Shown: positions 45,003 through 51,100 of the stretch, piece after piece | Numbering within the stretch: position 1 is the stretch's first letter | Layout of the letters: each line of letters opens with the position of its first letter | NCBI GenBank assembly: GCA_951406725.2 | Contig: OX597828.1 | Coordinates: 62,124,001 to 62,188,000 of the forward strand | Length of the DNA: 64,000 bases | Reading direction: 5' to 3' | Source of the DNA: Octopus vulgaris | Lineage: Eukaryota | Notes under the pieces: generated by a model | The model's database searches: none | What the model saw: only the letters and a program-made list of their open reading frames with translations | Told to the model about the DNA's origin: nothing | Position numbers and translations under genes: made by a program

Positions 45003-46107
45003 TAGATAGATAGATATAACAGTGGTGACGACGATTTAAACAACTCACGAGAAGTCAACAAATTCACAAAGTTTTGTTGTCTGAATTTTGCGAAAAAGAA
45101 AAATCGTAAAAAATTATGGAAAATTTGTTGGCCAGTTTGCTCGAGTTGCAAAAACAGGAATTACAACAACTGAAAGAACAACAACAATTACTATGACAAC
45201 AACAAATGCTGCAATTAATGAAGTCGTCAGAAAATTCAGAAAAAATCTTCTTGCCAGACAATGTCGCGAACTCGATAAGAGAGTACAAATACGAACCTGA
45301 CGAAGGAGTTACCTTCGAAGCATGCTACTGAAGATCTGAGCAAATCTTCGAGAAAGAATGTAAAGATTGGGACGACAAGATGAAAACACGCTTAATCTTG
45401 AGAGAACTGGTGACAATAAAGTAATTATGTACTCACAAGAAAACCTTCGAACATAAACTTTAATAACACAATAGATATATTGCGAAAGATTTCCAGTAAA
45501 GAAAGCTCATTGTTCAACATACGTTGGAAGTGTCTGAACATAGAGAAAACAACGACGAGAATTCCATCACATAGGCTGGTAGAGTAAACAAGGAATGGAA
45601 GAAGTTTAAGCTGGACGAATTAACGCCGGATATGTTCAAATGCCTGGTTTTTAAACAGGGACTTACTGCCGAAAAGGACGCAGAAGTTAGAACTAGAATT
45701 CTCGCAAAGCTGGAACAAAACCATGATGTAACCCTGCAGCAAGTGTCAGAAGAATGTGAAAGTATAGTCAAATTAAGACACGACACAGAGAAATTTGAAC
45801 GTAAAGATTGTTTCTATGTAAAGCAAGTGCAAAATAATCAGAATAGAGACATGTGGAGGTATACACCTGAGGAAAAATTGTCCATTTAAGAAAGCGGAAG
45901 TGCATATAAAGACGCACTGTAGAACGAAGATGACAAGACATCAGAACTAGGAAAAAGAATAAATAGTTTCTCATCAGAAGAAATTAGTAATATAACGATG
46001 AGGAAATTCGTGAAGGTGAAAATCAGAAATACAAGTGTTAAAATGTCGTTGGAAACTGGTAGTGATATCACCATTATAAACGAAAAAAACTTGGAAATAT
46101 GTCGGTA

Positions 46108-46256
46108 CATTGTTTGCATTATTTACATTATTTACATTTTACGGATATTTGCCTCATCTTATGTATTGTTAACACAACGTTTCGGCTGATATACTCTTCA
46201 GCCTTCGTCAGGTGTCTTGGGGAAATTTCGAACCTGGGTTCTAAATATAGAACTGT
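46108..46256 (-). mobile_element. 149-bp hammerhead-carrying retroposed insertion
   Basis: 12-bp TSD aatatgtcggta at 46096-46107 and 46257-46268. Removing the insert restores protease TWKYVGKP. Confidence 0.9.
46171..46216 (-). ncRNA. Type I hammerhead ribozyme, canonical core
   Basis: GACAC CTGACGA A GGCTGA agagtata TCAGCC GAAA CG TT GTGTT. 5-bp stem I, 6-bp stem II, palindromic AACGTT, GUU site. Confidence 0.88.
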
Positions 46257-46888
46257 AATATGTCGGTAAACCGTAATTAATTAAATTGAAAAAGGTAGCA
46301 GATGGTGTTGCGGGGAAAATATTCTATTTTTTCGGTGAATTCGCATGTAATGTAACATTTCGAGGTCAAACGAAAAAGGCAAAGATATATGTATTAAAAG
46401 ATTCACTTAATTTATTCGGCACAGAGTGGATGGAACTATTCAAATTGTAGGATACACCCATAAGTGTTCTATGTGGAAATATAGTTGAGTCAGTCAAAGG
46501 TTCAAATGAGGCCGAAGGACTGAAACAAAAAATAAAATTATTTCCAGATTTTCTTTGGAAGAACTGGATTTTGGTACAAAAAACAAAACCCTAATTGCTG
46601 TAAAATAAAGTGCAACACTGGTCTTTAGAGAAAGAAATGAAAAATTTGCCCACTATAAAAAGTAAACATTGTTCAAAAGTAGATGTTCTGTGGTCGAGAA
46701 TACGCATCGATGTTGCTGGTCTTTTAAACGTTTATTACTACTTAGAGGTAGTCGACAGTTCTTCGAAATGACCTGAAATTTGTAAGTGTAAAAAACCAAC
46801 CTCCTCAACTGTGATAAATTTTTGACACGAATTGTTTGCGCGGTTTGGCATCCCAGACAAGATAGTGTCTGACAATGGAACGCAATTT

Positions 46889-51050: not shown

Positions 51051-51100
51051 AACTATGCCTACGCGTTTCGGTCTTTTCATTGACCTCGTCAGTATAATTC
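51051..51100 (-). ncRNA. Type I hammerhead ribozyme motif
   Basis: AATTATA CTGACGA GGTC aatgaaaa GACC GAAA CGCG TA ggcATAGTT. Stem I is imperfect next to the core. Lies in a ~315-bp unit between microsatellites. Confidence 0.7.

Follow-up and report, generated by a model that had tools for sequence, protein, structure and literature searches.

Can a unit that is little more than a hammerhead ribozyme transpose by itself? The question is raised by a decayed Gypsy-type element in a 64,000-nucleotide stretch of the Octopus vulgaris genome (contig OX597828.1, positions 62,124,001 to 62,188,000; hereafter the window). The element is interrupted by 149 bp that carry a hammerhead motif between two copies of a 12-mer, and the original prediction took this as direct evidence for the solo mobility of a tiny ribozyme unit. 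Our analysis, which rests on comparison of genomic copies, points elsewhere: with a probability of roughly 85%, the insert is one heavily 5'-truncated and 5'-inverted copy of a high-copy Penelope-like retrotransposon. The features of the locus, in window coordinates, are as follows.

45575..46768, plus strand: recognised part of a decayed Gypsy-type LTR element with gag-like, aspartic protease and integrase-like pieces, stops and frameshifts, assigned from the domains of its paralog L036
46096..46107, plus strand: target-site duplication, left copy, present once in nine of the 11 Gypsy paralogs fetched
46108..46242, minus strand: forward arm, 135 nt of a Penelope terminal repeat, assigned by identity and frame continuity with other loci
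46108..46139, minus strand: (AAATAATGT)-like repeats, codons N-N-V at the ORF start, where tail-less (site 1) ends fall
46171..46216, minus strand: minimal type I hammerhead, assigned by motif, folding and an architecture as in PMC4209133
46243..46256, plus strand: inverted arm, made up of the terminal 14 nt of the 34-nt tail (site 2), with the element sense on the plus strand
46257..46268, plus strand: target-site duplication, right copy, identical to the left 12-mer

A true insertion into a decayed Gypsy-type element

The 12-mer AATATGTCGGTA lies at 46096-46107 and again at 46257-46268, with 149 bp in between; a 12-mer would recur by chance at two such fixed places with a probability of ~2e-7. 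The 2.8-Gb genome was searched for copies and paralogs, and 11 paralogous Gypsy loci were fetched out of 39 non-self matches listed. The 12-mer is present in one copy in nine of the 11 (four exact, five with one or two differences) and the other two are uninformative; none of the 11 carries the insert at the homologous site. Because the 12-mer is single in nine paralogs, its doubling in the window is a true target duplication. The claim of a 149-bp retrotransposition product with a 12-bp duplication is thus borne out, the empty site being preserved in the Gypsy paralogs.

It had also been claimed that removal of the insert rejoins the Gypsy protease frame. The flanks are indeed in frame across the insertion site, as they are in paralog L036, but the window copy was broken independently, with a frameshift immediately to the left of the insertion and a stop immediately to its right, and no intact frame is recovered. 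The domain assignment comes from L036, which matches RVP with an E value of 4e-4 (over the cut-off) and rve_3 with an E value of 0.013 (under the cut-off). Both the host element (window 45575-46768) and L036 (757-2473) pass from the protease almost straight into the integrase-like piece, without room for RT-RNase H; the host belongs to a family with an internal deletion, for which 339 search candidates were obtained.

The insert is part of a Penelope-like terminal repeat

A genome search with the insert gave 1,838 candidates, 40 of which were scored, and 29 other loci were fetched. All 29 match the insert solely from position 13-15 onward, with 91-94% identity over the forward arm, which is ~6% diverged from the column majority of the family. 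Many copies have a 34-nt extension beyond the AAATAATGT repeats, and the insert begins with the reverse complement of the last 14 nt of this extension. The 24-mer spanning this junction has one exact occurrence genome-wide, and the sole match with one mismatch (L032) runs on into a tRNA-like head instead. The 5' fold-back that had been pointed out is present, with the loop TATT on the minus strand, but it is a by-product of the inversion junction, at which 14 nt of the 34-nt tail are inverted.

The forward arm starts 3 nt past the parent's first in-frame ATG, from which the body reads as an open frame, and ends at the reverse-transcription start site that we call site 1. Frame continuity of the body is seen in L203 and 29 further loci, where the tail leads into the N-terminal part of the ORF; in the copy that was translated, it does so in frame. 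The AAATAATGT-like unit of 9 nt encodes N-N-V, and what had been read as the 3' tail of a retroposon is therefore coding sequence of the parent, the codons at its ORF start.

The hammerhead 23-mer of the family has at least 4,481 exact matches in the genome. Fixed-position samples (four arms in 600 kb) lead to an estimate of ~19,000 arms, with a range of 5,000-48,000, and a second estimate, from the exact presence of the 23-mer in 8 of 85 arms not selected for it, is ~48,000; the size of the family is thus put at roughly 20,000-50,000 copies.

The parent is linked to a reverse transcriptase ORF

The terminal repeat of the parent consists, in order, of the ORF stop codon, 25 nt, a tRNA-derived segment with A and B boxes (the head), (AAT)n, an ATG, the hammerhead, site 1 and the tail. 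Among 30 loci fetched from 80 exact matches to the head, the ORF end clearly precedes 11 and its last 8 nt precede one more. In two sets of loci selected for the ORF, the head comes immediately after it in 10 of 11 and in 19 of 20. This bears out the expectation that a Penelope partner exists, and the suggestion of a solo Penelope terminal repeat (pLTR) came close; the insert does not constitute a family of its own.

The best ORF, a 569-aa open frame with RT motifs in L202, is the longest frame of the parent family among 150 scored matches, none of which holds an intact full-length ORF. It matches RVT_1 with an E value of 2.7e-6 and 27.7 bits, just under the cut-off, and its neighbours in the Atlas at 0.96-0.97 carry RVT_1, one cluster having GIY-YIG in 47% of its members. 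A PDB sequence search gave weak RT matches only. Pfam gave no match to the GIY-YIG part of the ORF, and a degenerate GIY-YIG-like motif was found at the L202 ORF end by inspection. The parent encodes an RT and a putative GIY-YIG-type endonuclease, the latter called from the motif and the Atlas clusters. No zinc-finger linker motif between RT and EN was seen in L202, and one is present in the control families. Domain order, together with motifs that we take to be those of the Penelope/Poseidon clade, makes the parent a putative member of that clade. The Penelope-type features found are a terminal repeat with the ORF start and a minimal hammerhead, a 34-nt tail at one end only, an inverted 5' copy and a target duplication.

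Other Penelope-like families reside in the same genome. An ORF upstream of L005 was considered as the partner and rejected, as it belongs to a different family with the repeat in 0 of 24 of its other loci. The L005-type family, which has many near-identical copies with long frames, serves as a control family in later comparisons. Another family (L319, L324, G000:C16) has a zinc-finger linker, many copies with a 781-aa open frame and a 3' region with ~70-nt tandem repeats, and was probably active recently, judging from these frames.

The hammerhead is carried as a passenger

A canonical hammerhead on the minus strand had been predicted. The 5-bp stem I, the 6-bp stem II and the GUU are all there, but the motif is the minimal, dimer-type hammerhead of Penelope repeats. 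Its layout is a 5-bp stem I, CUGACGA, one unpaired A, a 6-bp stem II and GAAAC-GUU without loop 3, which agrees with the minimal type I form in its conserved core, helix I of 4-5 bp, long helix II with an unpaired 5' base and palindromic helix III. The fold has a z of -4.89 and none of 200 shuffles was as stable. Cleavage is predicted between 46176 and 46175, and the palindromic AACGTT at 46176-46181 would be expected to allow cleavage as a dimer; minimal hammerheads of Penelope repeats are described as cleaving weakly in vitro, as dimers (PMC4209133). Rfam gave no match to the hammerhead of the insert, and its scan of the whole window gave mostly microsatellite matches.

Of 83 arms that had not been chosen for their core, just 30 have it intact, and the 5' ends of the mapped arms show no peak at the cleavage site (body position 90). 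The hammerhead is a passenger in the insertion and the ribozyme does not define the mobile unit.

A second hammerhead-like motif lies elsewhere in the window (51053-51097, minus strand), with CUGACGA, a 4-bp helix II, GAAA-CGCG-UA and a weak helix I. A genome search with 171 bp around it matched only itself, and it could be a decayed ribozyme or one retained in a single copy.

Ends, lengths and the origin of the insert

Working in chromosome order from the start of the 23-mer list, we took 90 loci, dropped five that overlapped with neighbours and mapped 85 insertions. An inverted arm is present in 46 of them. A tail-less end falls at body 140-160 (site 1) and a tailed end at site 2, and the 46 inverted pairs comprise 40 with one end of each type, six with two site-1 ends and none with two site-2 ends (P 1.8e-7 against independent pairing). 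Inspection of the six site-1/site-1 pairs revealed two with a tailed end further out and one palindrome that includes flanking sequence. Across all loci in hand, an 11-18-bp duplication flanks 42 of 82 inverted-tail insertions and none in a shifted control, with a mode of 12 bp (19 of 42); the other 40 had no duplication by the search used, through decay, nested insertions or true absence. The inverted-arm end of the window copy recurs in all 42, the window copy being one of them.

The duplication-flanked insertions form a continuum from 109 to 2,456 bp, the longest containing the ORF. Three short look-alikes have junctions of their own (L114, 152 bp; L121, 109 bp; L185, 111 bp), and two of these, L121 and L185, lack the CUGANGA core. 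The 149-bp form occurs only once, among insertions with the same two ends but varying lengths. Family membership, both ends, the duplication, the length continuum and the ORF-linked parent are established for the insert. The alternative entertained in the original prediction, that the copies are 5'-truncated ends of one Penelope, largely describes what was found, except that the 5' ends are not random and pile up at the tRNA-like head; the window copy itself is cut off below the head.

The insertion may be pictured by analogy with Anolis, where the Penelope protein is reported to cut and extend both target strands, the tail lying between two neighbouring internal start sites, and where hammerhead cleavage is dispensable for insertion (PMC11167929). 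The two-primer chemistry and the identity of the template RNA are what we infer from that system for the octopus element. The element's enzyme probably made cuts in the two target strands, offset by 12 nt, and reverse transcription would have been primed from each. One end would prime within the AAATAATGT repeats at site 1 and copy 135 nt, passing the hammerhead; the first three bases of the duplication, on the minus strand, match the next three of the RNA beyond site 1. The other end would prime at the end of the 34-nt tail, at site 2, and copy 14-15 nt. Both cDNAs would abort early and join via 1-3 nt of microhomology, and gap filling would leave the 12-bp duplication. There is about an even chance that the template of most short copies was a ~300-nt RNA polymerase III transcript starting at the tRNA-like segment. 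The inverted 5' copy and the 30-40-nt tail are known from Penelope elements (PMC8557442, PMC3846280), as is the inclusion of the ORF start and tail in their repeats (PMC3846280, PMC11167929).

It is conceivable, but improbable, that a longer inverted pair was inserted and later collapsed to 149 bp by a microhomology deletion; the junction sequence by itself fits either course equally well. Palindromes are prone to deletion, inverted pairs are common in the sample and many copies have internal deletions; against this, asymmetric arms of all lengths occur, among them the 17-29-nt inverted tails of L114, L121 and L185, as truncation at insertion predicts. A minimal ribozyme unit or retrozyme moving as its own family, possibly via circular RNA, is far less probable still: the window copy does have an intact core and a duplication, and non-autonomous hammerhead elements derived from Penelope repeats are known (bioRxiv 10.64898/2026.07.22.740005; PMC7229834), but this is a single, non-tandem copy with a unique junction and ends away from the cleavage site, its look-alikes can lack the core, most unselected arms have lost it, and none of the RNA joints listed suggests a circle.

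Adjacent direct repeats of the body occur in 2 of the 85 sampled insertions, and the window copy is single. L151 is a palindrome in which ~45 nt of flanking DNA are inverted and duplicated on both sides of two tail-less arms, either through a fold-back event or as an assembly artefact. At ~1540-1900 in element orientation in L345, L348, L349 and L356, and also in L350, L354, L355 and L368, the tail with 200-290 nt of the ORF start runs straight into another copy of the repeat. L345 and L349 have one junction in common; this set, biased by query length, may stem from template jumping, with a third internal site as the target, or form a small non-autonomous subfamily with two hammerheads.

A tRNA-like head in the terminal repeat

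A tRNA-related head with A and B boxes is found in the parent and in head-bearing copies, and is absent from the window copy. Its 74 nt, between the stop codon and the microsatellite, align end to end with the tRNA-Ile(AAT) of the genome (46 of 75 columns, z 6.7), head position 7 corresponding to tRNA +1; tRNA-Tyr, the only other type compared, gave a z under 2. The commonest A-box and B-box variants, in 49 and 52 of 110 arms, respectively, fit the Pol III consensus. ARAGORN called no tRNA in 10 family loci or in three more head loci, and Rfam gave no tRNA match for the head. A first tRNA motif search of the genome was empty and a looser one led to the tRNA-Ile genes. Clusters of tRNA-Ile(AAT) genes were observed at G000:C4:51.99-52.04 Mb and C8:22.98-23.07 Mb, the C4 cluster being interspersed with intron-containing tRNA-Tyr genes.

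Truncation points pile up at the head. Of 133 distinct arms, 32 end within head positions 1-14, with position 7 accounting for 10 of them, and only 10 arms continue into the ORF. The stop rate per nucleotide is 0.070 at the head start, 0.0039 further inside the head (~18-fold lower) and 0.0019 in the ORF. The sense strand is also devoid of TTTT, with none in the 2,469 nt of L203, where shuffling of the bases gives a mean of 5.2 (P 0.006), or in the column majority. The other Penelope-like families of this genome that served as controls have 3-4 per 1.3-1.8 kb, or 6-7 over such a length in one matched for base composition, which amounts to 2-5 per kb; against the controls, the absence has a Poisson P of 6e-5 to 4e-3. 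Stricter nulls are borderline, with one test family (dinucleotide shuffle P 0.07, own-codon P 0.055, control-codon P 0.028).

Taken together, the tRNA-derived segment with its A and B boxes, the clustering of 5' ends where it starts and the lack of sense-strand TTTT suggest that this segment is a Pol III promoter, and thus Pol III transcription from a SINE built into the Penelope. This would be an addition to, not a replacement of, the truncated-Penelope explanation of the insert.

The pile-up may also have arisen without a promoter, and this we regard as somewhat short of an even chance. Reverse transcription on a long Pol II RNA would stop or fold back at the small GCCC-AC-GGGC hairpin at the head start, or RNase P would cut the tRNA-like 5' end. 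Symmetric fold-backs at the hairpin are seen in L148, L151, L168, L184 and L192, palindromic junctions and self-priming have been described for Penelope (PMC3846280), and variants are common to short and ORF-linked copies. Head-starting arms, however, often join unrelated positions in the other arm or the flank (for example L105, L109, L119, L154, L156 and L188), and the cloverleaf has decayed whereas the A and B boxes have been retained; the lack of TTTT is left unaccounted for.

More doubtful is the fullest form of the Pol III reading, in which the whole family, ORF included, is transcribed from the A and B boxes, the upstream repeat giving full-length RNA and head-keeping repeats giving short SINE-like RNA. 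Besides the full-length tRNA-Ile alignment, the clustered ends and the absence of TTTT, it would fit the head lying upstream of the ATG and ORF start in five partial tandems (L353, L357, L358, L364 and L370). It is weakened by the stricter TTTT nulls, by a TTTT near the ORF start common to 5 of 32 copies, by the hairpin, which may itself produce fold-back junctions, and by the lack of tRNA calls. No variant separates 39 ORF-linked from 71 head-starting arms, and the family therefore has no SINE lineage of independent standing.

RNA-seq from a related species (three runs) gives equal depth in both directions on L202, strandedness not being on record, and an increase in depth where the head begins, which mirrors the genomic step; no pile-up of read ends and no discrete ends were seen in these libraries, whose type is ill-suited, and the absence of common start or end points weighs against the Pol III reading. 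The search for sequencing runs returned 20 rows from seven organisms, containing 59-81% of the query words; among the runs listed as containing the sequence, none was recorded as RNA.

Should the full Pol III reading hold, a protein-coding Penelope would be run by Pol III from a captured tRNA-derived promoter, with a terminator-free 2.5-kb transcript, and each 3' repeat, equipped with promoter, hammerhead and the two priming sites, would form a ready-made SINE; this we consider possible but rather unlikely.

Implications

The 149-bp insert is ordinary Penelope debris, and it is the parent that is probably a new variant. PMC8557442 and PMC11167929 treat the way in which Penelope elements acquire their tail and inverted ends as an unsolved question. 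Tens of thousands of short copies, the 12-bp duplications and the one-tail rule (40 of 46 pairs, none two-tailed) provide a direct genomic test of the two-primer model. If the tRNA-like segment is a promoter, a SINE has arisen inside its own motor element, with an ORF on a Pol III transcript, and part of the annotated tRNA-SINEs in such genomes would be Penelope terminal repeat. A Pol III promoter in the repeat would account for thousands of short, SINE-like copies, and the octopus would then have a retrotransposon with its own SINE, a tRNA SINE mobilised by Penelope.

The family may already be named, or catalogued under a SINE name. Three octopus tRNA-SINEs were reportedly described by Ohshima and Okada in 1994. 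In the literature covered, a scope without Repbase, Dfam and most subscription papers, neither a tRNA-derived head in a Penelope repeat nor a Penelope-mobilised SINE was found, and a word search of the PMC13282606 supplement gave neither "hammerhead" nor "ribozyme". Further related literature includes PMC8967140.

Comparison with known systems

The closest relatives are the EN+ Penelope-like elements, such as Anolis Poseidon (PMC11167929) and Adineta Pen2 (PMC3846280). As described there, they are alike in having an RT followed by a GIY-YIG-type domain, which is putative in the octopus parent, a terminal repeat that takes in the ORF start and a minimal hammerhead, a tail of 30-40 nt at one end only, an inverted 5' copy, a target duplication and heavy 5' truncation. 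In the octopus element, site 1 is ~120-140 nt from the beginning of the ORF, compared with 111-118 nt in Anolis Poseidon. Unlike the EN+ Penelopes in the parts of those descriptions that were covered, the octopus parent has a full-length tRNA-derived segment with A and B boxes in its repeat, a strong pile-up of 5' ends at that segment and no sense-strand TTTT.

The SM-alpha and Sj-alpha elements of Schistosoma (PMC6765202) are short dispersed repeats that similarly place a Pol III-type promoter ahead of a type I hammerhead. According to what is described there, they are tandem units freed by the ribozyme, and a partner is not named in the part of the account covered; here, in contrast, the head and hammerhead together make up a terminal repeat belonging to a protein-coding Penelope, and the ends are set by reverse transcription rather than by cleavage. 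The animal non-LTR retrozymes (PMC7229834; bioRxiv 10.64898/2026.07.22.740005) are likewise non-coding, with a type I hammerhead and kinship to Penelope repeats. They are described as tandem, with a hammerhead per unit and circles of 170-400 nt, whereas the window copy is single, with inverted ends and a duplication; a retrozyme-like origin, which had been raised for it, does not fit such a copy or the distribution of 5' ends.

Helenus, Ajax and Cassandra (PMC10886601) resemble the octopus element in carrying small RNA-derived sequence within a retroelement terminal repeat. These are described as non-autonomous LTR elements, and the parent of the octopus insert is a protein-coding, Penelope-like one.
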